Shown: in pieces, positions 1 through 35,356 of the stretch
How positions within the stretch are numbered: the first letter of the stretch is position 1
Layout of the letters: each line of letters begins with the position of its first letter
Assembly: GCA_964425225.1 (NCBI GenBank)
Contig: CAYRMD010000010.1
Location: 16,712 to 80,711 of the forward strand
From: an uncultured Pirellulaceae bacterium
Lineage (GTDB): Bacteria > Planctomycetota > Planctomycetia > Pirellulales > Pirellulaceae
DNA length: 64,000 nt
Reading direction: 5' to 3'
The notes under the pieces: generated by a model
The model's input: the letters and a program-made list of their open reading frames with translations, nothing else
Database searches by the model: none
Told to the model about the DNA's origin: nothing
Translations under genes and position numbers: made by a program

Positions 1-1635
1 GTAGCCAAGTACAGTACGCACAGCGGTGTGCGGAAGCGAAGCAGTATTGCTAGGCAACGGCGATAAAGGGCACGAACGTGATCCAGAAAGCGTGCGTGAC
101 GCCGCGCCTGTTCCGCGCGACCTCGTAATAACCAAATCGACATCACCGGAACAAAGGTGCTGGATAGAACATACGAGACGACCATGGAAAAACCGACTGC
201 CAGAGCCAGCGATGCGAACAACGACCGTGCAGCTCCTCGCATGAAAAAAGCCGAAATAAACACCGCCAAGATACAAACCATCGCCAAGAATCTTGGGCGA
301 ACCGTTTCGACGGCTCCATCGCGCACGGCTCTGGCCAAAGGAGCTCCTTTTTCCAAATGTGAATGGATATTCTCGATCGCTACAGTAGCCTCATCCACCA
401 GGATTCCGATGGCCAATGCAAGGCCACCTAAGGTCATCAAATTGAGTGTCTGGCCCGTGATCTACAAGGAAAAAACGGCCGCCATGAGGGCCGGGGGAAT
501 GTTGAGCACGACGACCAGTGCGCTGCGCCAATCTTTGAGAAACCATAGAATCATGAGTCCCACGAGAACTGCCCTCAATAGTCCTTCGGTCACGACACCG
601 CTGACCCCGCGGGTAACGTACGGTGTCTGGTCGAATTCAAAACTGACGCGCACGTCGTCGGGCAGAACCGCTTGCATCTGCGGCAACGCGGCTTTGATGG
701 CATGGATAACCGAAAGGGTTGAAGCATCGGCCCGTTTGGTCGCCAAGATGTACACAGCACGCCGGCCGTTGACCAAAGCATAACCTGCCGGAAGATCCAT
801 ATAATCCCGCACCGTGCCAATATCCCGCAAACAAATTGTGTGCCCCGCCTCGCTACGAATCGGTACGGTTGCTAATTCAGCTACCTCCTTCACAACAGAA
901 TTGACGGGCACGACCGGATACTTGTCTTAATGGCATATTGCCGGAAGGACTGATACGGTTGCTATTGGCCAACGCAACCGCTACCTCTTCAGGCGACATG
1001 CCGTAAGCTTGCATTCGCTCAGGATCCAGCGTCACGACTACCGTGCGCTGACTGCCCCAAACGGCGGCGGCGCAGAAACTCCCGGAAGTGCCGCAAACAT
1101 GGGCCGCACGCGAAACAAAGCCAAATCTTGTATTTCCGCAATCGAACGGGTTTCGCTCGACAACACCAGCCGACCTACCGGCACACTCCCGGTATCGAAC
1201 CGCATCACGAACGGTGATACGGTACCGGGCGGCATAAAGGCTTGAGAACGATTCACGTAGTTAATCGTTTCCGCCATAGCCTGCGCCATATTGGTGCCCG
1301 GATGAAACACCAGTTTCATCAACGCTACGCTATGTATATTGCGCGACTCGACATGATGGATGCCGCTGATGTAAAGAAAGTGATACTCGTAATAATTGGT
1401 CAAATAACCTTCCATCTGAGCAGGATCCATGCCGCCGTATGGCTGACAAACATAGATAAGGGGCATATTCAGTATTGGAAAAATGTCGACTGGTATTCCC
1501 CGCGGCATGGCATCGGGATACCGCCATCCGAGCGCTTGGCACAACGGCTTGCCGGTAGCCAGTAGGAATCCCAGCATCAGCCCCGCAATTGCGATCATTA
1601 CCGTTATCGGGTAGCGCAGAAACGATCAAACGCAT
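1..1635 (-). pseudogene. RND/AcrB-family efflux transporter, N-terminal part, broken by frameshifts; runs off the window start
   Basis: AcrB-like peptide continues across three minus-strand frames. ORF 1038-1598 ends in TAG, and [40 protein letters not shown] continues in another frame. Another shift lies near 925-935 before YPVVPVNSVVKEV (ORF 462-911). A further shift at about 455-462 (T6 run) precedes [30 protein letters not shown], which stays open to position 1. Confidence 0.6.
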
Positions 1636-10342: not shown

Positions 10343-11218
10343 TCAAGGCGAATTCTCATACCAACCCGGTTTCATGCCCAGTGCGGCAACCAGTTCTTCA
10401 GTGGCCTGTTGGAAGTGGCTCGGCAATTCGAGCCATGGCGCACATCGGCACAAGGCATGCGGATGCACTCTCTTGAGATTCTCACCCAACTCCATCTGCA
10501 AATCCGAGTATGAACAACCCCAAAAGAAGTGGGCGGCAATTCGTAACGGAGGATCGACAGTGGCAGTCGCTGACGATTCCCTACGTGTTTCTGGAGTTAA
10601 CAATTCGTCGATCGTAAGGAAAACAACTTGCCAACGTTCCCGAGCCTGAAGCTTTTCTACTTGCTCGACACACACAACTAATCCGGCCAGGGCCGATTGC
10701 CACTTAGCCTTGGTGCGCGGCGGCCATTGCCGTGCCACCAGCCGCGCTAGTGGTTGGCAGTTATGCCAATGCTGCCAAAGTTGGCCAAGCGTACAGCCAA
10801 ACCGAGGATGGCGCCAATCGGCCGCGATTTCGATCGCCGGTTCCAGAACGAATCGACGAAAGGCTAAACGCGGATGAGGAACGACCAGTTCGGGCCGTTC
10901 TTCTGTCTTCTGGTCATACAGCAGTATGTCGATGTCTAACGTGCGAGGGCCCCAACGGACTGTCCGTTGACGTCCCATTTGTTTTTCGATCTGTTGACAC
11001 TCCTGCCACGTTTCGTGGAGCGGCAGATCGGTGTGTAGATAGACCACACCGTTGACGTAATCCGGCTGTCCCCGGGGACCACCGACGGCTGAGTAACGAT
11101 GCCAGTGGCTACGGGCATGTAGTTGGCCGACGCGCGTAGCGAGTAAATCCACGGCGGTTTCGAGTTGAAGATAAGGATCGCCGAGATTCGAGCCGAGCCC
11201 CAGCAACAATGCGGCCAT
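10343..11218 (-). CDS. folK: 2-amino-4-hydroxy-6-hydroxymethyldihydropteridine diphosphokinase (HPPK) with ~130 aa C-terminal extension
   Basis: N-terminus LGLGSNLGDP...WGPRTLDIDILLYD...PHPRLAFRRFVLEP is the HPPK signature. The C-terminal third was not recognised. Confidence 0.85.
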   Translation of the reverse strand: MAALLLGLGSNLGDPYLQLETAVDLLATRVGQLHARSHWHRYSAVGGPRGQPDYVNGVVYLHTDLPLHETWQECQQIEKQMGRQRTVRWGPRTLDIDILLYDQKTEERPELVVPHPRLAFRRFVLEPAIEIAADWRHPRFGCTLGQLWQHWHNCQPLARLVARQWPPRTKAKWQSALAGLVVCVEQVEKLQARERWQVVFLTIDELLTPETRRESSATATVDPPLRIAAHFFWGCSYSDLQMELGENLKRVHPHALCRCAPWLELPSHFQQATEELVAALGMKPGWYENSP

Positions 11219-11731: not shown

Positions 11732-13981
11732 TTGCCACCGCTTGCTGGTAAAAAACGCTTGGAATACTTGAGCCCGCGGCAGATTTTCCGCAAAGCTCGC
11801 CGCGCGCTTATCGCAAAGCTCGCAGTGGTTCGGCCTGCCACATGGGCGATGGCCGCAAGTCTGGTAAGTGCCTCAGGAGCGATTCTAGCGCTTGTTGTGC
11901 TCGTGCCAGACCGTTCTCTTCCAGCGCATCTATCGATCCTGTTCTTGGCTGTCGCTATTTCCGCTTGCGCTGCGGCGTTCTCATGGTGGTATGTCGCACG
12001 CCGCAAAGGGCGATGGGCATGGTATCGGCGTTGGCGCGCCGAGCGGCGGCGGCTGCGTGCCGAACGGCACCGACTGGCTGCCGAACGAGCTGACTGGACA
12101 GCATCGCTCGAACAATGGACCGCCCAAATCACCTCGCGCGAAAAACAACTGATCAACCGCCTGACCACCTTCCACGAATGGATGGAGTTTCCCCAACCAA
12201 TTAGCCTGACCGAGGCTGAAAATGATGTGGCGAGCTGGATACAGAAAGACCGTCAATTGGTGGAGTTGCTCCAACGCCAAACTGAAGCGTTCTTCCAGAA
12301 AGTATTGGCGAATGCATACTTGGAGAACAATCAGTTACAGTGGGCCCGCATTCGTGACGATGCCATCGGTTTGATACGCCAAGTAGCACGCCTGTATCGC
12401 CCGGAGGTCGACGAACCGCTCTTGGAGGTAAGTGTCGAACAGATCTTGCGCTCAGCCAGCCGTGTGTGTCTGCAAATGCTGATCGTCTTGGATCGGCTGC
12501 CACTGGATGTCAAACAATACAATCTTAACCGATTGTACGGTTACATTCGGTCGGCCGTGAAGGCATACGGTATCTACAAAGCAGCCGAGCCGTATTTGCC
12601 CTACGTTAGTTCTGCCTATTACCTTGGGCGAGCGGCCATGGGAGCCAACCCGTGGCTGTTGAGTGCTTGGTGGCTCGTGGGTCGGCAGAGTCAACGGTGG
12701 GTCAAGCAATGGGCCGGACGCTTTGTCGAGCGTCAGGCACTGGCATTGTTGCGGGATGTGGTTCACCTGATTGGGTATGAAGCAGCGGCAGTATACGGAG
12801 GCGACTTTTACCACCGTGACGCCAATTGGATTTATGGCGTGGAACTGGTGGAACTCATGAGAAGTGTCCCATTGGCGCCGGATAGTTTTCGAGCAGCGTT
12901 GAATGAGTTAGGCCGATTGCCTCTGCGCAGCGAATATGATCGCGTGTTTTTGTATCGCGCGGTGGCAGTGCGACAATCGGCGGATCCGGATCGCTATCGT
13001 CCCCGCGAATTGCTCACCCCGCAAGAGCGCCAGTCAATTGGGCGTCGATTGGAAAACTTCGCACACGCGTTCTGGGTTCACGGAGACCTTTCGCAATGGA
13101 CTCGCTGGGCTCAACGTGCCGAAGAGCGACTGGGAGTTCGATTCAGTTTTCCCTGCCAGGAGCCTCTGCCACCCGAAGAGCAACGGATCGAGGCGGTCCG
13201 CTCCCTGGCAAGTTACCTGCTGGATCGAAAAGAATGCGAGCTGTCAGCTATCGAAACGTGGCTGACGAATACCCAGTGTTGGAAACGCCTGAGCACCGAA
13301 CAACAGGCTGCGATGCGCGAGGAGCTTTTGCAGAATCCACCGTATGTGTTCCTCCTGCCGATGCTCGAGGTTCGTGGTCCGGAGGTGGAACACTATTGGG
13401 CCGACCTGGTGGAGCTAGCCGTGGCCGTACCGCCGCACTTATTTGATTTGGACGATTTGCTGGCGGAAACAGCCGCTTATTTACACCGCGAAACATCTGC
13501 CGTTCGGTACCGCTTCGACCAGGCTCTGCGCCGCCGTCTGGAAACTATCCTTGCCACGCCGGACGCCTTGCGCTGCGATCCGCCATCAGGGGTGGTACGT
13601 GCCGTGCTGGAGCTTACCGCGGATCGGCCTGGTGTGGAGTTCCTTTATCCGTGTGTCATTCGAGAATCGAGCGCAATGGCCCAAGCTGTCCTCGAATCGC
13701 GTTTCGGGCGATCCGCCTGGCTACTCGGTACCGAGCAGCGTTTAATCGTCTTTTCTGTTTCTCCGCAAGGATCCCGCATGTTGTGGACTTCCGATACGCC
13801 GATTAACCTGCGGCAATATGAAAGTTGGATCGGTTCCCGCTATCTGCTTGACGGGGGCCAATGGATCGATCCGGCCGACGTCGGTCGCTCCATTTGGGTA
13901 CCGGCACCACTCTGGAAATCTCGAGCGGATTATTGGCGGCCCCTATTGAGTTCGGCTCTTGTTCGACAAACCGAAAGCTGA
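11732..13981 (+). CDS. Large hypothetical membrane/coiled-coil protein (749 aa)
   Basis: Uninterrupted 2.25 kb ORF. It has two N-terminal hydrophobic helices, an Arg-rich heptad segment (RRWRAERRRLRAERHRLAAERADW) and a long unrecognised domain. Start is TTG 11732 or ATG 11849. Confidence 0.7.
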   Translation: MPPLAGKKRLEYLSPRQIFRKARRALIAKLAVVRPATWAMAASLVSASGAILALVVLVPDRSLPAHLSILFLAVAISACAAAFSWWYVARRKGRWAWYRRWRAERRRLRAERHRLAAERADWTASLEQWTAQITSREKQLINRLTTFHEWMEFPQPISLTEAENDVASWIQKDRQLVELLQRQTEAFFQKVLANAYLENNQLQWARIRDDAIGLIRQVARLYRPEVDEPLLEVSVEQILRSASRVCLQMLIVLDRLPLDVKQYNLNRLYGYIRSAVKAYGIYKAAEPYLPYVSSAYYLGRAAMGANPWLLSAWWLVGRQSQRWVKQWAGRFVERQALALLRDVVHLIGYEAAAVYGGDFYHRDANWIYGVELVELMRSVPLAPDSFRAALNELGRLPLRSEYDRVFLYRAVAVRQSADPDRYRPRELLTPQERQSIGRRLENFAHAFWVHGDLSQWTRWAQRAEERLGVRFSFPCQEPLPPEEQRIEAVRSLASYLLDRKECELSAIETWLTNTQCWKRLSTEQQAAMREELLQNPPYVFLLPMLEVRGPEVEHYWADLVELAVAVPPHLFDLDDLLAETAAYLHRETSAVRYRFDQALRRRLETILATPDALRCDPPSGVVRAVLELTADRPGVEFLYPCVIRESSAMAQAVLESRFGRSAWLLGTEQRLIVFSVSPQGSRMLWTSDTPINLRQYESWIGSRYLLDGGQWIDPADVGRSIWVPAPLWKSRADYWRPLLSSALVRQTES

Positions 13982-14020
13982 GAATTCCCTCCGAAAGTCT
14001 AGAATTCCCTCGAAGACTTG
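13982..14020 (+). repeat. Tandem direct repeat AGAATTCCCTC(C)GAA(A)G(T/A)CT x2
   Basis: agaattccctccgaaagtct (13982-14001) is followed directly by agaattccctcgaagactt (14002-14020), just after the 749-aa stop. Confidence 0.7.
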
Positions 14021-14115
14021 TACGGGACTCCGAGCCGGTTTAGCATGAGGGGTGTAGGTGGTCAGGGCGTTGACCGCCTGTGGGTGCTAGGTAGCCGTAG
14101 AAAGGAAGAGGCGTT

Positions 14116-14559
14116 ATGTCAAGTCCTGCGGTTGGGCGGCCGTTAGAGTTGTTACTAATCGAAGACAATTTGATGGATGCCCAGGTTGCTATCCGAGCCC
14201 TGCGGGACGGTCAGGTGATTCACCGAATGACGTTAGTCGTCGACGGCGAAGAGGCGCTAGAATTCTTGAAACGATGCGGTCGGTTCAAACGTGCGCCTCG
14301 TCCGGACATCGTCTTGTTGGATCTCTTCTTGCCGAAACGCAGTGGCTTGGAAGTACTGGCAGAAATTCGGCAAGATCCGGAGTTGCACAACCTGCCGGTT
14401 GTGGTGTTGACTACCAGCGAAGATGAAGCCATGCGTGCCGAGTGTGAGCGATACGAAGTGGATTGCTACCTCGTGAAACCCGTCAACCTAGAAAAATTCA
14501 TCCGAGTGGTTCAGCAAATCAAGCGTTTGTTGCTTGAAGATGTCATCCTCCCGGTGTGA
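14116..14559 (+). CDS. Single-domain response regulator (CheY/Rcp1-like receiver)
   Basis: LLIEDNLMDA...DIVLLDLFLPKRSG...VVVLTTS...YLVKP gives the acidic pocket, phospho-Asp, Thr and Lys positions. RBS AAGGAAGAGG lies upstream. Confidence 0.9.
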   Translation: MSSPAVGRPLELLLIEDNLMDAQVAIRALRDGQVIHRMTLVVDGEEALEFLKRCGRFKRAPRPDIVLLDLFLPKRSGLEVLAEIRQDPELHNLPVVVLTTSEDEAMRAECERYEVDCYLVKPVNLEKFIRVVQQIKRLLLEDVILPV

Positions 14560-14593
14560 TTTCGGTTCATACCAAGGGCACAAGGAACGTGCC

Positions 14594-15262
14594 GTGTCGG
14601 ACGATCCGTTTTTACCGGCCCCTGCGCTTGGTATCTTAGAAACCCATGGCTTGACGCCGGCTTTAGTGGCGCTAGATGTGATGGAGAAGTCGGCTCCGGT
14701 ACGGGTCGTCGAAGCGGAGCTGAACGACGCCCGCGGGTACGTGCTGAAGATCGTCGGCCCGATTCCCGCCGTTGCGACTGCCTTGCAGGCAGCTCGAACG
14801 GTAGCCGAGCAAATGGGTGGCCATCCCATCGTTCACCAAATCGGTGCCCCCGATCGTCACGCGTGGAAAGGCGTACGAAGTGTTATCGAGTACAATCCGC
14901 TTATTCAGCAACCCATCGTATTTCAGCCCGATTCTCTACGAGCGGCTAGGCAAATTGTCCAGGAGGCACAGCCAGTGAGTCAACCGGAATCATTCGCGCT
15001 GGGGCTCATTGAAACCCAAGGTTTTACTGCGGTGTTCGAGGCCGTCGATACGGCATGCAAGACTGCCAACGTCGAAGTCATAGGCAAGGAAAAATTAGGG
15101 GGAGGTTATGTCACCGTGATTCTCAAAGGCGATGTGGCTGCGGTTAAAGCAGCGGTGCAAGCCGGTGCCCAACGAGTCGAAGGGCTCGGCAAGCTCATCG
15201 CTGCGCATGTGATTGCACGTCCCAGTCCCTCCGTTCTAAGTCTGCTTCCGCGATCCGGCTAG
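14594..15262 (+). CDS. Tandem-domain bacterial microcompartment shell protein (BMC-T type)
   Basis: Two BMC (Pfam00936-like) domains. The first is LGILETHGLTPALVALDVMEKSAPVRVV...GYVLKIVG. The second is canonical: LGLIETQGFTAVFEAVDTACKTANVEVIGKEKLGGGYVTVILKGDVAAVKAAVQAG. GTG 14594 follows AAGGAA; the alternative ATG 14534 overlaps the RR gene. Confidence 0.85.
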   Translation: MSDDPFLPAPALGILETHGLTPALVALDVMEKSAPVRVVEAELNDARGYVLKIVGPIPAVATALQAARTVAEQMGGHPIVHQIGAPDRHAWKGVRSVIEYNPLIQQPIVFQPDSLRAARQIVQEAQPVSQPESFALGLIETQGFTAVFEAVDTACKTANVEVIGKEKLGGGYVTVILKGDVAAVKAAVQAGAQRVEGLGKLIAAHVIARPSPSVLSLLPRSG

Positions 15263-15269
15263 GCACCCT

Positions 15270-15926
15270 ATGCAAGTATTGGTCGAATCCCACCCGCATC
15301 TTTATTTAAGGGGGTTTCTCACGGAGCTATCCCAACCGCTGGGACAACTATCGACGCCGGCCCGCGTCAAGGATCTGCTGCGTCTTGACTTTAAGGCTCC
15401 CATCGAGCGACCACCGGGATTGGAACCGGCGGTGCGCGACATGCTACGTTACGGGGGATTCAAACCGTCCGGAAGAAGCAAACCGTCTTCCGAATACCTG
15501 ATGGCGGCAGCACAGTCAGGCCGTTTTCCTCAAGTCAACCTCCTGGTGGATCTAGCCAACGGCGTCTCGTTGCATTCCGGGTTACCCATCAGCTTAGTGG
15601 ATCTGGGTCGGCTGAGTCCGCCCCTTATCGTGAAAATCGCGTCTGCCGGAAGTGCGTATCCATTTAACCCCTCGGGTCAGCAAATCGATGTGTCGGGCCT
15701 GGTCTGCTTGCACGATGCGATGGGACCCTGTGCTAACGCCGTCAAAGATGCGCAGCGCGTCAAGACCGATGCCACCACCACAGTCACCTTGACACTGATT
15801 TGGGGTTGCCGGGCGTTCGCTTGGTATGTCGAGCAGGCCGAGCGCTGGTACCGTTATATTTTGGGTGAGTTAGGTTTCCGTGTGACGGAGTTATCATTCC
15901 AGCGGATCGGCGAGTCGATTAGCTGA
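15270..15926 (+). CDS. B3/B4 domain protein (PheT-related tRNA-binding domain family)
   Basis: YGGFKPSGRSKPSSEYLM...NLLVDLANGVSLHSGLPISLVDL...DAMGPCANAVKDAQRVKT is typical of stand-alone B3/4 proteins. Starts 8 nt after the BMC-T stop. Confidence 0.75.
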   Translation: MQVLVESHPHLYLRGFLTELSQPLGQLSTPARVKDLLRLDFKAPIERPPGLEPAVRDMLRYGGFKPSGRSKPSSEYLMAAAQSGRFPQVNLLVDLANGVSLHSGLPISLVDLGRLSPPLIVKIASAGSAYPFNPSGQQIDVSGLVCLHDAMGPCANAVKDAQRVKTDATTTVTLTLIWGCRAFAWYVEQAERWYRYILGELGFRVTELSFQRIGESIS

Positions 15927-15976: not shown

Positions 15977-17035
15977 TCAGTCGATTAGCCACCGGGTTAC
16001 GCAGGGTGCACCTTTCTCCAGAAATCGCCGGCGAATTTCATCTGGATGAGCAACGCCCGTGGTACCCAATTGTTCGATGGTGATCGACGCTACCAGGTTG
16101 GCAAACGCAGCAGCTTCCCAGGGCGAAGCGCCCGCCAACAGGCCGCTCACAATAGCGCTGCTGGCGGCATCTCCGGCGCCGACAATGTCAATCGGTCCTG
16201 TCACCGGAACAGCGTGTACCTTGACGGGCTGGGTGTCAGGTAGAGCTACCAGGATGCCCTCTTCACCCAAGGTGCAGAAGGCAGGCTGTTGCGTGCAATG
16301 TACGCGAGCCGTAACGGACTCCCACAACTGCTGCCGACTGGACATCTCGTTACGGCCAGTGGCCTGGAGAAACTCACGACGGTTTCCCTTTGCCATACCC
16401 ACGCGAAAGCATCCTAAACGCTCGCGACTATCGACCAACACTAGCTTGTCCGGCATCCAGTGACAGAGTTGCTCAAGGACCTGACGCGTACGTGGGTTTA
16501 CGACTCCGTTAGCTTCCTCGGGAACTTGATCCAACACGATCCACCCGTCGCATTCTGCAAACGCCGTTTGCAGACTTGAGGTAAGCATCTGTTGGGCGGT
16601 TTCCGACAACGGATGGCGCGAGCGAACATCCAAACGATTCAACTCGTACGGCGGTTGGCCCGTGCGTAACTCGATCGGTTTCGTGTACGTAGGCGTCATC
16701 CGGTCTGCCAGGCGTAGGATTCTCGTTGTATCCACCGGCAGTCCGTCCATGGCACGAAGTAGGTCGTACGCGTGGCCGTCGTCCCCGATGACCGTCACCG
16801 GCACGATACGGCCGACTCCAAGGGCCGCCAGATTGTTCATGATCGTGCCGAGGGCTCCCGGAGAGTTACGGATGCGAACCACCTGATGAGCCGGACGACC
16901 TGTTTCTATCGAACGCTCCTCTAGTTCCGGATCAATCTCTAGGTACCGATCCAAGAACAGGTCACCAAGAAGGCCGATGGTGAGCCCTGGCAGGTTCTGC
17001 AGGATCATCTCGAGCCGCTCACGGGTCAATTGCAT
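15977..17035 (-). CDS. PfkB-family carbohydrate or sugar-phosphate kinase (RfaE domain I-like)
   Basis: [10 protein letters not shown]...[14 protein letters not shown]...[18 protein letters not shown] (PfkB signature 2). Start taken at MQLTRERLE (17035) so that it does not overlap rpmJ. Confidence 0.8.
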
Positions 17036-17083
17036 GGGATGCCCCCATGAAGCAAACGCCTGTGCGCCTGGCACAAACTCCCC

Positions 17084-17113
17084 TTGCCATACTTCCACCA
17101 AGCTGCGTATATT
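17084..17113 (+). promoter_or_regulatory. Candidate sigma70-type promoter for rpmJ-rpsM-rpsK-rpoA-rplQ
   Basis: TTGCCA (17084-17089), an 18-nt spacer, then TATATT (17108-17113), 32 nt upstream of the rpmJ ATG. GGAGG at 17131. Confidence 0.35.
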
Positions 17114-17144
17114 GCATAATTCCCCGGTTGGGAGGAACGAGACG

Positions 17145-17258
17145 ATGAAAGTACGAGCAAGCGTTAAGCGGATATGCGAGCACTGCCGTGTGGTGCGTCG
17201 CAAGGGCCGCGTGTACATTATCTGCAAGAACCGTCGCCACAAGCAACGCCAGGGTTAG
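17145..17258 (+). CDS. rpmJ: 50S ribosomal protein L36
   Basis: [37 protein letters not shown], 37 aa. Confidence 0.95.
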
Positions 17259-17408
17259 GCTTTTGGGGTGCAAACCAGCCCGTTGCTTCGCTTGGAGCGT
17301 TCGCTTGGTCGGTGACTGCTTACTGCCCAGCGAATCAACGATTTAAATTAAGAGTTTTCGACGGGTTAAGCCCAGACACCCAGTAAACATTAAGGAGCCC
17401 GCTAGCTT

Positions 17409-17792
17409 ATGCCGCGCATCCTGGGGGTAGACATCCCAAGTGACAAGCCGACTGTTATTTCGTTGCAATACCTGTACGGGGTTGGACCCCGGATAGCCCG
17501 CGAGTTATGCCAAAAGGCTAAAGTGGATCCGCAGCGTCGAGCTCGGGAGTTGAGCGAAGACGAAGTGGGCCGCTTGGCAGCTTTGTTAGAGCGGGATTAT
17601 ATGGTCGAAGGCCCACTACGTCGGCAGGTGGCGCAGAATATCAACCGCTTGCGCGACATTAAATGTTATCGCGGGATTCGTCATCGCTTGGGGTTACCCG
17701 TGCGCGGTCAGCGTACTCGTACCAACGCCCGGACTCGCAAAGGTCCGAAAAAGACCGTTGCCGGCAAGAAAGGCGTAAAAGATCTGCGTTAG
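17409..17792 (+). CDS. rpsM: 30S ribosomal protein S13
   Basis: [26 protein letters not shown]...[26 protein letters not shown]. Confidence 0.97.
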
Positions 17793-17819
17793 GTTCGATG
17801 GGATGCCGGAGGTCAATGC

Positions 17820-18200
17820 ATGGCAAAAGCCAAAAAGAAGAAACTTCGCAGAAATGTCACGCAAGCCGTGGCCCATATTAAAGCCACCTTCAACAATACG
17901 ATGGTGACGATCACCGACATGAAGGGCGATACTCTCTGTTGGGCCAGTGCCGGTACCTGTGGCTTTAAAGGGAGCCGCAAGAGTACGCCCTTTGCTGGTC
18001 AATGTGCGGCACAGCAAGCAGCGGAAAAAGCCGCAAAATTCGGTGTTCGAGAGTTGGAAGTACGAATAAAAGGCCCTGGTGCTGGCCGCGAAAGTGCTAT
18101 TACGGCTTTGCAATCGGCCGGTATGACTATCAAAGTAATCGAAGACGTCACCCCTATCCCGCATAACGGTTGTCGGCCCCGCAAGCGACGTCGCGTCTAG
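17820..18200 (+). CDS. rpsK: 30S ribosomal protein S11
   Basis: [27 protein letters not shown]...GSRKSTPFA...[21 protein letters not shown]. Confidence 0.97.
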
Positions 18201-18264
18201 CGGGCCTGTCCGATACCAGGAAAATCAAGGCGGCTGACGCTTGCCCGTAACACAGGAGGCATCT

Positions 18265-19254
18265 ATGCACATTCGTTGGCGCGGACTGGAACTGCCCAGC
18301 AGTGTCATTTGCGAAAAAGAAACGCTCAGTCCCACGTACGGCAAATTCATCGCCGAACCATTCGAGCGTGGTTTCGGTCACACGATCGGCAATAGTTTAC
18401 GGCGCATCTTGCTGTCGAGCCTGGAAGGTAGCGCCGTAACGCAGATCAAAATCCGCGGTGCCCAGCACGAGTTCACCACCATTCCCGGTGTGCTCGAGGA
18501 TGTGACAGATATTGTACTGAACGTAAAATCGCTCGTCGTCAAAAATCATTCCGACAGCACGAAGGTCATTACAGTTGAAAAGAATCGCGCCGGTGTTGTG
18601 ACAGGTGCCGATATCCGATGCGACTCGGATGTCGAGATCATCAACAAGAATCACGTACTGGCCACGTTGACGGCGGATGTCGACTTCATGATGGAAATGG
18701 TGGTAGAAAACGGCCGTGGTTATGTACCAGCTCATGAACACAGTGCCGGTGAGCACGAGATCGGAATCATACCGATCGACGCCGTTTTTAGCCCGGTAGT
18801 GCGTGTACGATATGAAGTGGAAGAGACCCGAGTCGGCCAAAAAACCAACTACGACAAGCTCACCATGGAAATTTGGACCGACGGCTCCATCTCACCAGAA
18901 ATGGCCCTGGTTGAAGCCGCCAAAATCTTAAGGAAGCATCTGAATCCCTTTATCCAGTATCAAGAGCTCGGGCCACGTGTTTTTGCCCAACCGCGTGGCC
19001 AGTTGGCTGGTTTCGATCCGATGCTCGAGTCGAAACTGAATATGTCAATTTCCGAACTGAAACTCTCCTCGCGTGCTACGAACTGCCTAGAAAATGAAAA
19101 CATCCATACGTTGCGTGATCTGGTACAACGGACCGAGGATCAACTATTGGAAGTTCGAAACTTTGGTGAAACGTCGTTAAATGAGGTGAAAGAAAAACTT
19201 GCTGAACTCGGCCTGCGACTCGGCATGCGATTGCCTACAGTGCCGCTGCGTTGA
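18265..19254 (+). CDS. rpoA: DNA-directed RNA polymerase subunit alpha
   Basis: [34 protein letters not shown], plus a C-terminal domain [30 protein letters not shown] lies before ATG 18265. Confidence 0.97.
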
Positions 19255-19338
19255 GCTGTCGGATACCTGCGATCGATAAATTCCGCAGGGCAAGGAGGGC
19301 CCCAGTTCGTCGTACCCCCATTCCTAAGGAATACCATC

Positions 19339-19905
19339 ATGCGACATTGTAAGCGAGGACGCCACCTGGGACGCACATCGAGCCACCGCAAGGCGATGCT
19401 ACAGAATTTGGCCAGTGCTCTGTTTTTGACCGAACGGTCGGTCGATAAGGACTTGGATCCAAATCCTCCGGGCGTTCCGGGCCAAATTGTCACCACTCTG
19501 GCCAAAGCCAAAGAAGTGCGCTGGCTCGTCGAACGCTGTATCCGTATTGCATGCCAGAGTCTTCAGGCAGCGCGCGAGGCGGAACAGTTTGCTACGAGTG
19601 CCGCGCGCGGTACCCCGCAGTGGCGCGCATGGCGTGAAAGCGAACAGTGGCAAAAGTGGGCTCAAGCACGGGCAGCCGTTGTCAATGCTCGGCGCAGAGT
19701 GTTGCGCCTCTTGCGCAACAAGGATGCCATGCGCGTACTCTTCGAACGGATCGCCCCGCGTTACGAAAATCGATCCGGTGGCTATGTCCGGGTGCTTCGC
19801 TTGGCTCAACCTCGCGTTGGGGATGCTGGTACCCGAGCCTTGCTCCAATTAGTGGGTAAGCACGACCGCGTTCTTCGTAAAAGCATAAAACCCGCGGTCC
19901 AATAG
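19339..19905 (+). CDS. rplQ: 50S ribosomal protein L17 (long form, 188 aa)
   Basis: MRHCKRGRHLGRTSSHRKAMLQNLASALF...GGYVRVLRL, with an internal Ala/Arg/Trp-rich insertion. Confidence 0.93.
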   Translation: MRHCKRGRHLGRTSSHRKAMLQNLASALFLTERSVDKDLDPNPPGVPGQIVTTLAKAKEVRWLVERCIRIACQSLQAAREAEQFATSAARGTPQWRAWRESEQWQKWAQARAAVVNARRRVLRLLRNKDAMRVLFERIAPRYENRSGGYVRVLRLAQPRVGDAGTRALLQLVGKHDRVLRKSIKPAVQ

Positions 19906-29572: not shown

Positions 29573-29697
29573 AAAAGAAGCGCCCCTGACTTATGCACAT
29601 AGACACAGGGCGTTCGAAAGTCGGGTTGCCAAGTTAAGCCCCGCCGATATATTTAGTGGTTTCGGCAGCCTGAATGGAGCACGCACTAAACCGACCA

Positions 29698-29770
29698 GCC
29701 AGCGTAGCTCAACCGGCAGAGCAGCTGATTTGTAATCAGCAGGTTGTGGGTTCAAGTCCCTCCGCTGGCT
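29698..29770 (+). tRNA. tRNA-Thr (anticodon UGU)
   Basis: GCCAGCG acceptor stem, anticodon loop TTTGTAA, T-arm GTGGGTTCAAGTCCCTC. Confidence 0.9.
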
Positions 29771-29877
29771 TTATAACGGTAAAGTACGACGGTTAGAACG
29801 TCAGGCGATGCGGGGTGTTGCCGTGCGGATGGATCCAGTGCACGATTAGGGAACACTACGGCAGGGATAAAAACCGA

Positions 29878-29959
29878 GGGGGGTTTCCCGAGTGGTCAAA
29901 GGGGCCAGACTGTAAATCTGGTGGCTCAGCCTTCGAAGGTTCGAATCCTTCACCCCCCA
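29878..29959 (+). tRNA. tRNA-Tyr (anticodon GUA), long variable arm
   Basis: GGGGGGT acceptor stem, anticodon loop CTGTAAA, long extra arm, T-arm GAAGGTTCGAATCCTTC. Confidence 0.9.
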
Positions 29960-30051
29960 TTGGCTGCGAGCCCTGTCGTGTTGGCCTCCCGTCGAGTCGA
30001 CGGTCAGGCACCAGGGTGCCGGTACCGTAGAGTTCCACGAAGATCCGTTTT

Positions 30052-30122
30052 GCGGGTGTAGCTCAGTGGTAGAGCAACAGCCTTCCAAGCTGAAGACGAG
30101 GGTTCGATTCCCTTCACCCGCT
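30052..30122 (+). tRNA. tRNA-Gly (anticodon UCC)
   Basis: GCGGGTGTAGCTCAGTGGTAGAGC, anticodon loop CTTCCAA, T-arm GAGGGTTCGATTCCCTT. Confidence 0.9.
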
Positions 30123-30155
30123 TCGGACCCATCGGTCCGGCGGACGCTGCGTGTG

Positions 30156-30228
<73 letters not shown>

Positions 30229-30424
30229 TTGTTCTGCCGCCGAGCTGAAGACCCGGACTGTGGGGGCAATTCAGCCAATGCCACTTTACGCGCTTGGCAG
30301 ACTCTGTCATAATTTGAGTTTTCTAGGTTGGCGCGACCTACCGGTTGTTAGGTGTGCTAGTAACGAAATGGTATTGGGGAGAGTGGTTCGAGGAAACCTT
30401 AGTAACACATAAGGCGAGTAAGCA

Positions 30425-31621
30425 ATGGCAAAGGAGGTATTTGAACGGAAAAAGCCGCACGTGAACGTCGGCACCATTGGGCACATTGACCACGGGAAAA
30501 CGACTTTGGCAGGCGCAATCTTGGCGGTTCAAAGCCGTAAGGGTTTGGCTCAGTTCAAGTCGTATGCAGAAATCGCCAAAGGCGGAACGGTTCGAGACGA
30601 AACGAAAACTGTCACGATTGCGGTAGCCCACATCGAATACGAGACCGAGAAACGCCACTATGCTCATATCGACTGTCCGGGGCACGCTGACTACATCAAG
30701 AATATGATCACCGGTGCGGCGCAAATGGACGGTGCGATTTTGGTCGTCTCGGCAGCCGACGGTCCGATGCCCCAGACGAAAGAGCACGTGCTGTTAGCTC
30801 GCCAGGTAGGCGTCCCAGCAATGGTCGTTTTCCTGAACAAGTGTGATTTGGTGGACGACCCAGAATTATTGGAACTGGTCGAAATCGATATTCGGGACTT
30901 GTTGAACAAGTACGAGTTTAACGGTGACGAAGTTCCCATTATCCGCGGGTCGGCCCTGCCTGCCTATCAGCGACCGGATGACCCGCAAGCTACCAAGTGC
31001 ATTGAAGAGTTGTTGGAGGCCATTGACAACTATATTCCGTTACCAAAGCGCGAAGAGGACAAACCGTTCTTGATGGCCGTAGAAGATGTCTTCTCGATTG
31101 AAGGTCGCGGTACGGTAGCTACCGGGCGAATCGAGCGCGGCGTGGTGCGAGTCGGCGACGAAGTAGAAATCGTCGGGTTGACCGATGAGCCTCGAAAGAC
31201 GACAGTCACCGGCGTGGAGATGTTTCGCAAGGTTCTTGAAGAAGGGCGAGCTGGTGATAACGTGGGGTGCCTGCTCCGGGGTATCAAGCGAGACGAAGTC
31301 GAGCGCGGACAGGTGCTTGCTAAACCCGGTTCGGTAAAACCTCACCGCAAATTCGAAGCCGAAGTCTACTGCTTGTCGAAAGACGAGGGTGGTCGTCATA
31401 CCCCGTTTTTCAGCGGGTATCGGCCCCAATTCTATTTCCGCACTACCGACGTCACCGGAACAGCTAACCTTGTTAAGGCCGATATGTGCATGCCCGGTGA
31501 CAATGTTCGGCTGCAAGTAGAATTGCTCAAACCTATTGCCATGGACGAAGGGGTGCGGTTTGCCATTCGGGAGGGTGGTAAGACGGTTGGTTCGGGAGTC
31601 GTTACGAAGATCCTCGAGTAA
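30425..31621 (+). CDS. tuf: Elongation factor Tu
   Basis: [19 protein letters not shown]-type G1 motif ([13 protein letters not shown]), DCPGHADY and NKCD motifs, 398 aa. Confidence 0.98.
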
Positions 31622-31714
31622 GGTTGAGCGATCAGGCTCCGTGTCCGGCCGGCGTATAGATAGAAGGCCGAACGGTCTGCTACAATAAGTCAACAGCGGC
31701 GTTATTCGGCCCAC

Positions 31715-31787
31715 AGGGGTGTAGCTCAACTGGTAGAGCACCGGTCTCCAAAACCGGGGGTTGCGAGTTCGAGTCCCGCCGCCCCTG
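31715..31787 (+). tRNA. tRNA-Trp (anticodon CCA)
   Basis: AGGGGTGTAGCTCAACTGGTAGAGC, anticodon loop CTCCAAA. Canonical position between tuf and secE. Confidence 0.85.
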
Positions 31788-31812
31788 CTCGAATCAGCCA
31801 TTGCCTCGCTCA

Positions 31813-31854
31813 ACAGGCACACGCCCAAGGTGTCGACGGTCGCCTGTTTTTTTT
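31813..31854 (+). terminator. Probable intrinsic terminator after tRNA-Trp
   Basis: ACAGGC...GCCTGT imperfect hairpin followed by a T8 run (31847-31854). Confidence 0.45.
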
Positions 31855-31899
31855 CGGCCCGGCATGTACCTGCTGGAGTGAGCGGCGTGCGGGTGAAAC

Positions 31900-32316
31900 A
31901 TGAGTGCCATTTTTCGAGAGTTATTCCAGGTCGGCATCTACAAGCGGACTCAGGGTTTGCTGGTCCGCCAAATAACCGGCGCTGTGGTAGCGCTCGGTTT
32001 TTTGATCGCCGCTTGGCAACTCTATATTTGGCTTCGGGTAACTGTCCAGGCGGCGTGGCTGGTATACGGCGTGCCGATGTTCGTAGCCCTGGTTGGTCTG
32101 TGGACAAGCTATCGGCTGGTGAATGTGCCGCGGTTTGCTGATTTTTTAATAGCGGTGGAAGCGGAAATGCGAACCGTTTGGTGGCCCTCGTGGGCCGAAA
32201 CGGTACGCAGCTCTACCGTTGTCATCTTCGTGATGTTTTTTTTGGCCGCGGTACTATTTGCTTTCGACTTTGTCTGGACGGTTGTGTTTCAGTTCTTGGG
32301 CATTTTGAGGAAGTAA
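31900..32316 (+). CDS. secE: Preprotein translocase subunit SecE (three-TM form)
   Basis: 138 aa with three hydrophobic helices. The C-terminal helix is preceded by AEMRTVWWPSWAETVRSS (SecE signature). Sits upstream of nusG. Confidence 0.85.
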   Translation: MSAIFRELFQVGIYKRTQGLLVRQITGAVVALGFLIAAWQLYIWLRVTVQAAWLVYGVPMFVALVGLWTSYRLVNVPRFADFLIAVEAEMRTVWWPSWAETVRSSTVVIFVMFFLAAVLFAFDFVWTVVFQFLGILRK

Positions 32317-32357
32317 CTGAGCTGGTATCTGCCGCGGCAAACCTTGATAGGTCTATC

Positions 32358-33344
32358 ATGACGCAACCCAGTGACTCCATGTCGTCCAATGAGCTGCAGC
32401 AGCCGGGCGGTTCGCCGCAACCGATTGACAGCGTACGCGCCGCTCCCGCACCGCAAGCCAGCACCGTACAACCGCTAGCCACCGAGACGAATTGCGCAAT
32501 CCCGGGAGTAATGACCACGGAAGCTCGGGAGAACTTGGTACGCATCGAGGCTACCAACAGTGCTGCGGATGATTCGGTGAATCGCGCCGCAGAGCCAAGT
32601 GGCTTTTCGACCGAACCCGATGCATCGCAGGGCGATACAGAACCTAGTCCGGTGGAATCGATTGGGCCGCAGGCGGAGGAATCAGAAGCATTCGAAGTCC
32701 AGCCAGAACCAGAAGAAGTCCAGTCAGAAACCGTGTCCGAGTCGTCCGGCAGCCCAGCGGTACGTCCAATTGAGGAGGTGCCGGTAAGCCCGCCAGAAAT
32801 CCCCGAATTCCAATGGTACATCATTCGCGTCATGGTCAATCGGGAAACCGTGGCGGCGGAGGCGTTGCGCAAGCGGATCCAAATTGCCGGTTTGCAAGAC
32901 TATTTTGGGGAAATTGTGGCACCCACCGAAGATGTGGTCGAGTTTACCAAGACGGGAAAAAAGCGTACGGTTAAGCGTAAGCTTTTCCCGGGCTATATCA
33001 TGGTGCGCATGGCGCTGACCGATGAGACATGGTTTTTGGTTCGTGAAACCCCCGGAATTGGGGATTTTACCGGGGGAGCCGGACGCCCCACGCCGATGAC
33101 TCCCGACGAAGTGCGACGGATCATTAGGCCCAAGGGGCCTGCCGATCAGGAGGAACCCGCGGTTAGACTGGCAATTCCGTTCTCGGTTGGCGATCGTGTC
33201 CGAGTCAAAGAGGGATATTTTCAGAATTTCGAAGGGGACGTTGCGGCAATTGACGAGACGAATGGCCGTGTAACGGTGATGATTAACATCTTTGGAAGGT
33301 CTACGCCTGTAGAATTGCAGCACTGGCAGATGGAGCGCATTTAA
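32358..33344 (+). CDS. nusG: Transcription termination/antitermination factor NusG with long acidic N-terminal extension
   Basis: NGN domain WYIIRVMVNRETVAAEAL...FPGYIMVRM, and KOW domain VGDRVRVKEGYFQNFEGDVAAIDE. ATG 32358 is in frame. The longer ORF from 32178 would overlap secE. Confidence 0.92.
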   Translation: MTQPSDSMSSNELQQPGGSPQPIDSVRAAPAPQASTVQPLATETNCAIPGVMTTEARENLVRIEATNSAADDSVNRAAEPSGFSTEPDASQGDTEPSPVESIGPQAEESEAFEVQPEPEEVQSETVSESSGSPAVRPIEEVPVSPPEIPEFQWYIIRVMVNRETVAAEALRKRIQIAGLQDYFGEIVAPTEDVVEFTKTGKKRTVKRKLFPGYIMVRMALTDETWFLVRETPGIGDFTGGAGRPTPMTPDEVRRIIRPKGPADQEEPAVRLAIPFSVGDRVRVKEGYFQNFEGDVAAIDETNGRVTVMINIFGRSTPVELQHWQMERI

Positions 33345-33408
33345 TGGCCGAATACGGTCAGAGGTCCCTTGGAATATCCCGTGAGGTACTTCTGGAGATT
33401 CAGCGGTA

Positions 33409-33843
33409 ATGGCAAAGCAACGACAGCTTATTGGACAGGCACGCTTTCAGGTACCTGCCGGGCAGGCCACGCCTGCTCCTCCCGTGGGAACCTCGCTTGG
33501 CAAATACGGTATTAACTTGGGGCAATTTGTGACCCAATTCAACGAGCGAACGCGCGAATTGGTCGGAACTCGGGTCACGGTAATCGTCAACGTGTACAGC
33601 GATAAGACGTTCGAGTTTACCGTGAAAAGCCCTCCGGCTTCGGAATTGCTCAAGCAGGCGGCCGGTATTGTGAAAGGCTCCGGAGCGCCAAACAGAGAGA
33701 AGGTCGGGCGGGTGACTCGGGCGCAGATTGACGAGATCTGCCGCAAAAAAATGGCCGATCTCAATGCCCGTGATCTGGAACACGCACGACGCATGATCAT
33801 GGGTACGGCACGCAGCATGGGTATCGAGGTTGTGGAGGGCTAA
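33409..33843 (+). CDS. rplK: 50S ribosomal protein L11
   Basis: [32 protein letters not shown]... Confidence 0.97.
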
Positions 33844-33845
33844 GC

Positions 33846-34523
33846 ATGCCGAAGCATTCACGTCGCTATCGCCAATTGGCTGCGCTAGTCCCAGCAAAAC
33901 CGGTCGACCTGGCCTCAGCCATCCAAACGCTCAAGCAGTTCAACAACACGCGTTTCGACCAGTCGGTCGAGGTTCACGTGCGATTGGGAATCGATCCGAA
34001 GCAAGCCGACCAAATGGTTCGCGGTAGTGTCGTTCTACCACATGGTATCGGGCGTACTCAGCGCGTTGCGGTCTTTGCCAAGGGCGAGTTAGCCGATTTA
34101 GCGCGTCGAGCTGGTGCTGACATCGTAGGGCAAGAAGATCTGGTGAATCGGGTTAAGGAAGGATGGCTGGAATTCGACGTGTGCATTGCTACACCGGACA
34201 TGATGGGTCTGGTCGGACCTCTGGGTAGGATCTTGGGCCCGCGAGGTCTGATGCCTTCGCCCCGGGCTGGCACGGTGACCACGGATGTGGCGCGGGTCGT
34301 TCGTGAGTATAAAGCGGGTAAAGTCGAATTCAAAAACGACTCGGGCGGAAATGTGCATGCAGTCGTGGGTAAGTTAAGCTTTTCCGAACAACAGCTTATC
34401 GAAAATATTCAGACGTTCTTAGATTATTTGAATAGCTTGCGTCCTGCGGCCGTTCGAGGTGCTTTTATCCGCTCGATTAACGTAGCAGCCACCATGAGTC
34501 CGGCAGTTGCTATCGCCCTCTAA
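33846..34523 (+). CDS. rplA: 50S ribosomal protein L1
   Basis: [31 protein letters not shown]...[10 protein letters not shown]. Confidence 0.97.
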
Positions 34524-34554
34524 GTCGGTTTTTCCATAGGTAGGGATTCCACTG

Positions 34555-35088
34555 ATGAGTCGTTATGTAAAGAATTTGATCACCCAGGAAATTTCCCGAC
34601 GCTTACAAGGCGTCGAAGATCTACTGTTGGTGAACGTCGTCGGAATGGATGCGGATTCGACCTATCGATTGCGGAAGGAGTTGCGCGAAAAAAACATCCG
34701 CCTGATGGTTGTCAAAACTAGTTTGGCTCGCCGGGCGTGTGAGGGAACGCGTTTGGCACCGGCTTTTGAAGGGGCCACCGGACCGATTGCTTTGGTGTGG
34801 GGAGGCGACGATTTTGTCTCGCTAGCCAAAGAGATTACGCGCATCATCAAAGAAGGCAAATATGAAAAGTTCGAGGCCAAGGGTGGAGTCTTCGAGGGAG
34901 AACGCCTCACGGTGGAGCGGATTGAACAGATCAGCAAATGGCCAAGCCGCCAAGAACAGCTAGCGATGCTGCTCGGCCAGATCCTCTCACCGGGTGCCCA
35001 ATTGGCTTCGCAGATCCTTGGCCCAGGAGGCTCATTGGCTAGTCAGATTCAGCAGTTGGCCGAGGAGCGACCTTCGGCTCCTGCCTGA
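34555..35088 (+). CDS. rplJ: 50S ribosomal protein L10
   Basis: Position between rplA and rplL, and a L10-like N-terminal domain (LLLVNVVGMDADSTYRLRKELREKNIRLMVVKTSLARRA). Confidence 0.9.
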   Translation: MSRYVKNLITQEISRRLQGVEDLLLVNVVGMDADSTYRLRKELREKNIRLMVVKTSLARRACEGTRLAPAFEGATGPIALVWGGDDFVSLAKEITRIIKEGKYEKFEAKGGVFEGERLTVERIEQISKWPSRQEQLAMLLGQILSPGAQLASQILGPGGSLASQIQQLAEERPSAPA

Positions 35089-35356
35089 AAGCTCGCTCCG
35101 TAGGTAAATCAGGCCGACCTCCGCGGTACGCCTAAGAACAAGGTATAACCGGTTGAACAAACGATCTGTCGCCGACAAATGGCAGGTTCACCTGCGATCA
35201 GGAACGACAACTGACCTTGGCAGGATCCATGGTAAAGTGTCCAATGAGAACATGATGTAGTGTCTCCGTACAAGGGGTACAGCTTTCTTCAGCTTAGGGG
35301 GCAGGATAGGATGGTCGTAGTTTCAGGGTCTTTCTCGAAGAAGGGTTGATGGCAAT

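Follow-up and report, generated by a model that had tools for sequence, protein, structure and literature searches.

We examined a 64-kb window of DNA (64,000 nucleotides; assembly GCA_964425225.1, contig CAYRMD010000010.1, positions 16,712 to 80,711) from an uncultured Pirellulaceae bacterium, in which a gene for a tandem-domain bacterial microcompartment (BMC) shell protein, here BMC-T, is packed between genes for a receiver-only response regulator (RR) and a stand-alone B3/4-fold protein. Our comparisons make it very probable that BMC-T is a satellite BMC-Ts of the Planctomycetes–Verrucomicrobia (PVM) type, a stand-alone copy belonging to a catalogued planctomycetal family, and that its neighbors reflect a lineage-specific juxtaposition. 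An earlier note, made from the letters of this stretch alone, had instead singled out the trio as an unusual orphan shell gene wired to phospho-signaling and to a tRNA-domain protein. Both this class of gene and its occurrence as a satellite are already catalogued, and the window gene is a further member.

The shell protein and its family

The open reading frame (ORF) map and the sequence place the three genes on the same strand, just where the earlier note had put them:

14116-14559, + strand: receiver-only (CheY-like) RR, 147 aa; PF00072, no output domain
14560-14593, + strand: RR-to-BMC-T spacer, 34 nt; Shine-Dalgarno-like AAGGA 8 nt before GTG 14594
14594-15262, + strand: predicted BMC-Ts shell protein, 222 aa; tandem non-permuted PF00936; probable PVM-satellite type
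15270-15926, + strand: stand-alone B3/4-fold protein, 218 aa; PF03483; PheRS-beta editing-domain fold, CtdA-like architecture

The predicted start of BMC-T is GTG 14594 and not TTG 14534, because the public database gene call is 222 aa long, the orthologues (28 aligned) have short N-termini, and the stretch CAAGGA-N-GTGCCGTG at this start, with its AAGGA-N8-GTG spacing, is kept in the closest relative, KatS3mg110. The gene therefore begins 34 nt past the RR stop with no overlap; the close packing that had been described stands, whereas the suggested overlap with the RR stop does not. The 34-nt spacer contains no promoter-like motif of its own, and the ATG of the B3/4 gene lies 7 nt beyond the BMC-T stop. 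Given these 34-nt and 7-nt spacers, RR, BMC-T and B3/4 are probably co-transcribed in the window lineage and in KatS3mg110.

The proposed two-domain nature of BMC-T was borne out, with PF00936 scoring 134 bits over two stretches of the ORF 14534-15262. Both domains are colinear with the Pfam model from profile position 1 (1-75 and 1-65 of 75), and the first, while diverged, is a genuine BMC domain since it reaches 49.4 bits by itself against a gathering threshold (GA) of 24.5. In the AlphaFold2 (AF2) model (pLDDT 86.5), the canonical BMC fold and its order of secondary-structure elements are repeated twice. The best sequence match is the tandem BMC-H fusion 6ner (E 1.6e-46), followed by basal BMC-H, with PduT and HO-5812 more distant; 6ner is likewise the best fold match (TM 0.70-0.88, normalized either way). 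This ranking identifies the protein as a predicted non-permuted BMC-Ts, unlike the BMC-Tsp and BMC-Tdp forms. While 6ner is a synthetic fusion of the Haliangium ochraceum protein, the window protein is a natural one. Its second domain is about 50% identical to basal BMC-H (HO-5815, PduA, EutM) and keeps their K-x-A-N and RP(S/H) interface motifs, whereas the first has diverged, with a pore loop of the form LND-x-x-G instead of G-G-G. A further difference from these proteins is a linker of 35-40 residues with a conserved NPLIQQ.

Across the 28 orthologues, domain 2 is near-invariant, retaining the edge lysine K156, ACK-x-AN and the ARPS corner, and domain 1 keeps an invariant K32 and RPD-x-x-AW. 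Hence, the edge and corner residues for facet tiling (edge Lys; (P/A)RPH-like corner) are kept in both domains. The contrast between a divergent first and a canonical second domain, to which the earlier note had drawn attention, is thus real but common to the whole family rather than special to the window gene. The pore-cysteine motif CP(G/S)K is absent from both the sequence and the alignment, and the sole cysteine of the window protein sits in TACKTAN, off the pore loops. PduT, or BMC-T^SE, is an iron–sulfur (Fe-S) cluster-binding BMC-Ts with a CP(G/S)K motif, paired with PduS/MNdh and often a PVM satellite (PMC11626177). It shares the tandem BMC-Ts architecture with the window protein, but the similarity between them is just E 1e-11 to 1e-13, compared to 1e-46 for the tandem BMC-H fusion. 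Since the motif is missing, and the neighboring genes are RR and B3/4 rather than PduS/MNdh, we ruled out the Fe-S PduT type.

To place the gene in its family, we scanned species-representative genomes (one per species), obtaining 561 pattern-matched stretches, 525 of which encode a BMC-T relative; the family is thus large, and it is strongly constrained. We read the gene context in the best 80 loci (given L-numbers), using tblastn with the neighbors and PVM components against flanks of varying length, up to 10 kb on each side. These loci come from 77 Planctomycetota, two Verrucomicrobiota and one unclassified genome, with the planctomycetal metagenome-assembled genomes spread over Pirellulaceae, Planctomycetaceae, Thermoguttaceae and Isosphaeraceae. 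In 78 of the 80, tblastn found no other shell gene, aldehyde dehydrogenase (AldDH), PTAC or acetate kinase (AckA) in the fetched flanks, and the genes around BMC-T vary widely from lineage to lineage. A solitary location is the normal state of this family, and the window gene is accordingly not the unusual orphan that it had been taken for. Its own surroundings follow suit: across the 64 kb, tblastn with queries from a related PVM-type locus matched the BMC-T gene itself and no BMC-H, BMC-P, AldDH, PTAC or acetate kinase, in agreement with the earlier note's statement that other shell and core enzyme genes are missing from the window.

In the two remaining loci (L029, L076), BMC-T lies 4.5-9 kb from a cluster of PTAC, BMC-H, BMC-H, acetate kinase, BMC-P and AldDH identified with Pfam. 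We call these clusters PVM-type by their PTAC/BMC-H/AckA/BMC-P/AldDH content, the gene content given for the PVM locus (PMC8217296; Axen 2014), with the aldolase signature gene lying outside the comparison. Both (L029:2831-6127, L076:1575-3608) display two to three distinct BMC-P genes around AldDH, which fits the PVM BMC-P triplet.

Satellite loci are defined in the BMC catalogue (Sutter et al. 2021, Nat Commun 12:3809, PMC8217296). In its BMC-Ts tree file (Supplementary Data 4), the clade Ts_mud, equivalent to T_pvm, holds planctomycetal proteins of 207-233 aa from Pirellula (e.g., SH-Sr6A), Rhodopirellula, Planctomycetaceae and Phycisphaeraceae, most of them typed 'bmcType=PVM (sat)' (PMC8217296). 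The window protein resembles this clade in its planctomycetal host, its length (222 aa), its tandem non-permuted PF00936 domains, the lack of a pore cysteine, its position away from a main locus and the presence of orthologues beside PVM-type clusters in two genomes. It differs from it in its tight packing, with a receiver gene ending 34 nt before it and a B3/4 gene starting 7 nt after it, and in apparently lacking a promoter-like element seen at many orthologues (see below). The reading of BMC-T as a satellite shell gene, one of the options raised by the earlier note, thus found support in the catalogue's typing of planctomycetal BMC-Ts proteins as PVM satellites.

We weighed two other uses for the protein. 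First, BMC-T might serve a microcompartment of a different type, such as FRAG5, FRAG2 or MIC3. The catalogue does include a planctomycetal FRAG5 whose BMC-Ts lacks the pore cysteine, along with MIC3 and FRAG2 members in the phylum (PMC8217296), and the main locus of the window genome is not in view. Yet both orthologues situated near a main locus adjoin PTAC-BMC-H-BMC-H-AckA-BMC-P-AldDH with further BMC-P copies, which is PVM content, and the catalogue labels the planctomycetal Ts clade of 207-233 aa as T_pvm (PMC8217296), making a non-PVM assignment improbable. Second, the tandem-BMC protein might work outside any compartment, for example by forming a sheet, scaffold or filament, in a genome devoid of a shell, as the earlier note had also considered. 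The missing shell partners in the 64 kb and the solitary gene in 78 of the 80 relatives would be compatible with this; however, the solitary site is the catalogued satellite pattern, the facet-forming BMC-H interface motifs are conserved in both domains, the fold equals that of the shell-building tandem BMC-H tile 6ner, and two orthologues lie beside full PVM-type loci. We found nothing that favors a non-compartment use over these observations and regard it as extremely unlikely.

The receiver gene and its adjacency to the shell gene

The identification of the upstream gene as a CheY-like receiver held up in the hidden Markov model (HMM) scan: PF00072 matches residues 13-132 of 147 with 62.3 bits (GA 30.2), and there is no second domain. 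Five orthologues keep the phospho-site residues without change: E16-D17 (the acidic pair), D69, T99 and K121. Its likeness to CheY-like single-domain response regulators thus lies in the receiver domain alone, with a full phospho-acceptor site. No kinase or partner was identified nearby, the conserved upstream neighbors in its clade being HPPK and a 749-aa protein (P749). The genes flanking the trio in the window are as follows:

10343-11218, - strand: HPPK (folK-like); PF01288, 118.7 bits; divergent; upstream edge of the RR-clade synteny block
11732-13981, + strand: P749, 749-aa hypothetical protein; sub-threshold Pfam match only
15977-17242, - strand: PfkB-family sugar kinase (RfaE domain-I-like); PF00294, 75.5 bits; TIGR02198, 107.8 bits, below cutoff; convergent with the trio

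Besides the window, an orthologous RR (61-84% identity, with a KPVNL-KF...DVILP tail) lies directly upstream of BMC-T only in L008 (KatS3mg110), L009, L010 and L032; the near-identical metagenome contigs L005/L006 also carry it there. The RR-linked BMC-T sequences form one clade in the neighbor-joining tree. The two genes are separated by 34 nt in the window and by 24 nt in KatS3mg110 (L001), compared to 229 nt in L009, about 436 nt in L005 and about 560 nt in L010. Approached from the receiver side, a scan of the 80 nearest metagenomic RR relatives recovered BMC-T in a single case, and that contig is the one of L010. Among the next-closest receivers (50-61% identity), many still have HPPK and/or P749 upstream, and they are followed downstream by Lar_N-like and SUKH-1 genes or by other variable genes. 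HPPK is kept upstream in L001/L008, L005, L009 and L010 as well as in the RR-only relatives L093 and L096, and P749 lies upstream of RR in L001, L005, L010 and L106 and is absent in L009. In three loci without BMC-T (L089:836-3544, L093:5964-7289, L096:6508-9115), the same strand carries, behind RR, a gene with a Lar_N domain (lactate-racemase-like) and then SUKH-1/SMI1.

The P749 family comprises 173 homologues of 700-760 aa, all unannotated and found almost only in Pirellulales-type planctomycetes. The window member has an N-terminus that is both Arg-rich and hydrophobic and contains no Pfam domain, its lone faint signal being 8xMP at 16.6 bits. The cultured Anatilimnocola aggregata and Lignipirellula cremea have neither RR nor BMC-T beside P749. 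Having no Pfam domain, and with the pairing absent from cultured Pirellulales, P749 was rejected as a kinase-like partner of RR.

Many BMC-T loci feature a candidate regulatory element. In about 22 of 79 loci, spread over different planctomycetal families, the motif (G/C)N(A/G)AGCTATA(C/T)T precedes the BMC-T start by 25-130 nt. The exact form AGCTATA[CT]T is found 17 times in 1.03 Mb of fetched sequence (both strands; ~5.6 expected), with 15 of the 17 at this position; sites include L011:9937, L013:1260, L016:9934, L022:6191, L023:9935, L066:9911, L077:9965, L080:9915, L087:9904 and others. The motif resembles an operator or a gene-specific extended -10 that accompanies the satellite gene from locus to locus; around the PVM-type clusters of L029 and L076, none was found. 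L009 retains an element of this type between RR and BMC-T, while it is absent from the window (13982-14593) and from KatS3mg110, which fits a capture of BMC-T by the upstream transcription unit. A consensus promoter scan of 11.2-17.5 kb found only a weak promoter-like site upstream of RR (13978-14005), and terminators in the same interval did not rise above shuffled expectation. The intergenic stretch between P749 and RR has two copies of the direct repeat AGAATTCCCTC, 9 nt apart (13981-14011), overlapping the weak promoter-like CTGAGA-16-TAGAAT; in the alignment, the repeat is absent at the equivalent place in KatS3mg110.

These data bear on the possibility that RR and BMC-Ts constitute a functional pair in this Pirellulaceae subclade, with the phospho-receiver binding or gating the trimer, or with co-expression tuning shell permeability, and with the B3/4 protein joining the pair in the two closest genomes. 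Orthologous RR and BMC-T genes are indeed neighbors on the same strand in five species-level genomes, with the pair kept in L009 even without P749; in the window and KatS3mg110, RR and BMC-T are 24-34 nt apart, and BMC-T and B3/4 7 nt; and a receiver with all its phospho-acceptor residues and no output domain must act via protein contacts. On the other hand, the linkage is monophyletic and shallow, and what speaks for it is adjacency; 75 of the 80 BMC-T loci, with their varying flank lengths, have no orthologous RR alongside; the nearest RR orthologues have different downstream genes; in three of the five genomes, the spacers are long enough (229-560 nt) to permit separate promoters; L009 keeps the family's promoter-like motif between the two genes; and B3/4 is linked in two genomes only, its own family showing no BMC association in the three contexts read. 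We therefore consider a functional pair to be unlikely. The more specific proposal, that the receiver was recruited in one Pirellulaceae subclade as a phosphorylation-dependent partner of the satellite BMC-Ts tile and is co-transcribed with it in the window lineage, strikes us as very unlikely. Were it true, it would mean two-component control over shell composition or permeability; in the literature searched, we found no case of a shell tile controlled by a receiver domain.

The wiring of the shell gene to phospho-signaling is accordingly not supported: the adjacency belongs to one shallow monophyletic clade, is tight in two genomes only, and the nearest RR orthologues from other loci have different genes downstream. 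Similarly, the synteny of the entire trio extends to one relative, KatS3mg110, but is not conserved across the 80 loci.

Some observations nevertheless weigh against reading BMC-T as a PVM satellite with incidental neighbors. The adjacency of RR and BMC-T spans divergent genomes (57-78% identity for BMC-T, 40-66% for P749 and ~40% for HPPK) and in L009 outlives the loss of P749. Because it persists over this divergence and that loss, a functional link between RR and BMC-T in the subclade is conceivable. The co-transcription invoked for the window lineage is itself read from spacing alone. Further, the placement in Ts_mud relies on taxon, length and family uniqueness rather than on a catalogue HMM score, and the 64 kb of genome in view do not contain the main BMC locus.

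The B3/4 protein and the remaining window

The downstream protein scores 26.6 bits with PF03483, just under the GA of 29.3, while 30 of 30 aligned members of its family match this model (best E 2e-12). The family comprises 2038 homologues, from Planctomycetota, Gemmatimonadota and others; every one listed has PF03483. Its AF2 model (pLDDT 91) retrieves CtdA (9mkl/9f7e; E 1e-10, TM 0.70, 16% identity) as the top Foldseek match, followed by the B3/B4 domains of PheRS-beta. Thus, the earlier assignment as a stand-alone B3/4 protein is upheld at the level of family and fold. CtdA is a stand-alone B3/4 protein that acts as a canavanyl-tRNA(Arg) deacylase (PMC10018355, PMC12449066). The window protein shares with it the stand-alone size of ~220-230 aa and the PheRS-beta B3/B4 editing fold, and CtdA is its best structural match; yet the two are just 16% identical, a profile search against the CtdA chains gave E 0.3-0.8, and the window protein falls in a separate subfamily. 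CtdA features specificity residues such as C166 and Q173, along with canavanyl-tRNA deacylation. Analogy with CtdA (PMC10018355, PMC12449066) makes a role in aminoacyl-tRNA trans-editing the most plausible one for the B3/4 protein.

Among the 80 loci, B3/4 and PfkB stand next to BMC-T only in the window and KatS3mg110, and three B3/4 homologues at 52-56% identity are found in unrelated gene contexts. A coupling of the shell gene to a tRNA-domain protein therefore lacks support as well. The gene call for PfkB is 413 aa in L007 and 353 aa in L001, and its real start is probably internal to the 15977-17242 ORF.

The larger ORFs of the first 35 kb are housekeeping genes, as identified with Pfam. 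The genes rpmJ-rpsM-rpsK-rpoA-rplQ (17000-19905) directly adjoin the trio, and about 10 kb of peptidase and Ap4A-phosphorylase genes separate them from tRNA(Thr,Tyr,Gly,Thr)-tufA-tRNA(Trp)-nusG-rplA-rplJ (29697-35100). With the rpmJ-rplQ and tufA-nusG-rplJ clusters nearby, the shell gene thus sits amid core translation genes. In the 388-aa ORF at 32178-33344 (+ strand), the NusG domain begins at residue 212, behind some 200 N-terminal residues that match no Pfam model; this ORF may be over-extended at its 5' end. A 186-aa ORF at 1038-1598 (- strand), beside a PadR regulator (1694-2095), matches only positions 30-173 of the 1021-position AcrB/ACR_tran model and could be either a fragment of a pseudogene or an efflux-pump gene that has been truncated. 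A reading of the region as a defense system was rejected, since the PADLOC matches were trivial receiver domains only.

Proposed history and implications

Taken as a PVM satellite, the 222-aa BMC-Ts would, we infer, form a pseudo-hexameric trimer that enters the facets of a PVM (fucose/rhamnose-type) shell as a minor tile; the BMC-H, BMC-P and enzymes of this shell would be encoded elsewhere in the genome. In most planctomycetes, the BMC-Ts gene appears to be a free-standing unit that has changed its chromosomal position over time. Its insertion at the downstream breakpoint of the HPPK/P749/RR block may have happened once, in the ancestor of one Pirellulaceae subclade, and in the window lineage and its closest relative the spacer to RR would then have shrunk to 24-34 nt. 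A second juxtaposition, later and in the immediate lineage of the window, would have brought the B3/4 gene to 7 nt downstream, together with PfkB. The receiver, an ordinary single-domain CheY-like protein, and the B3/4 protein, which belongs to a widespread family of stand-alone PheRS-beta-like proteins with aminoacyl-tRNA deacylases as its characterized relatives, would be unrelated passengers with roles separate from the shell.

This outcome places the gene within a catalogued class, that of PVM-type satellite BMC-Ts, and has little import beyond annotation. It does, however, caution against inferring function from a tight three-gene cluster, which comparison here revealed as a shallow lineage-specific juxtaposition. 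What novelty remains is the possible co-transcription of BMC-T with the receiver gene in two genomes, and the wider interest lies in whether a shell gene joined to the transcription unit of a receiver thereby alters the timing of tile production.

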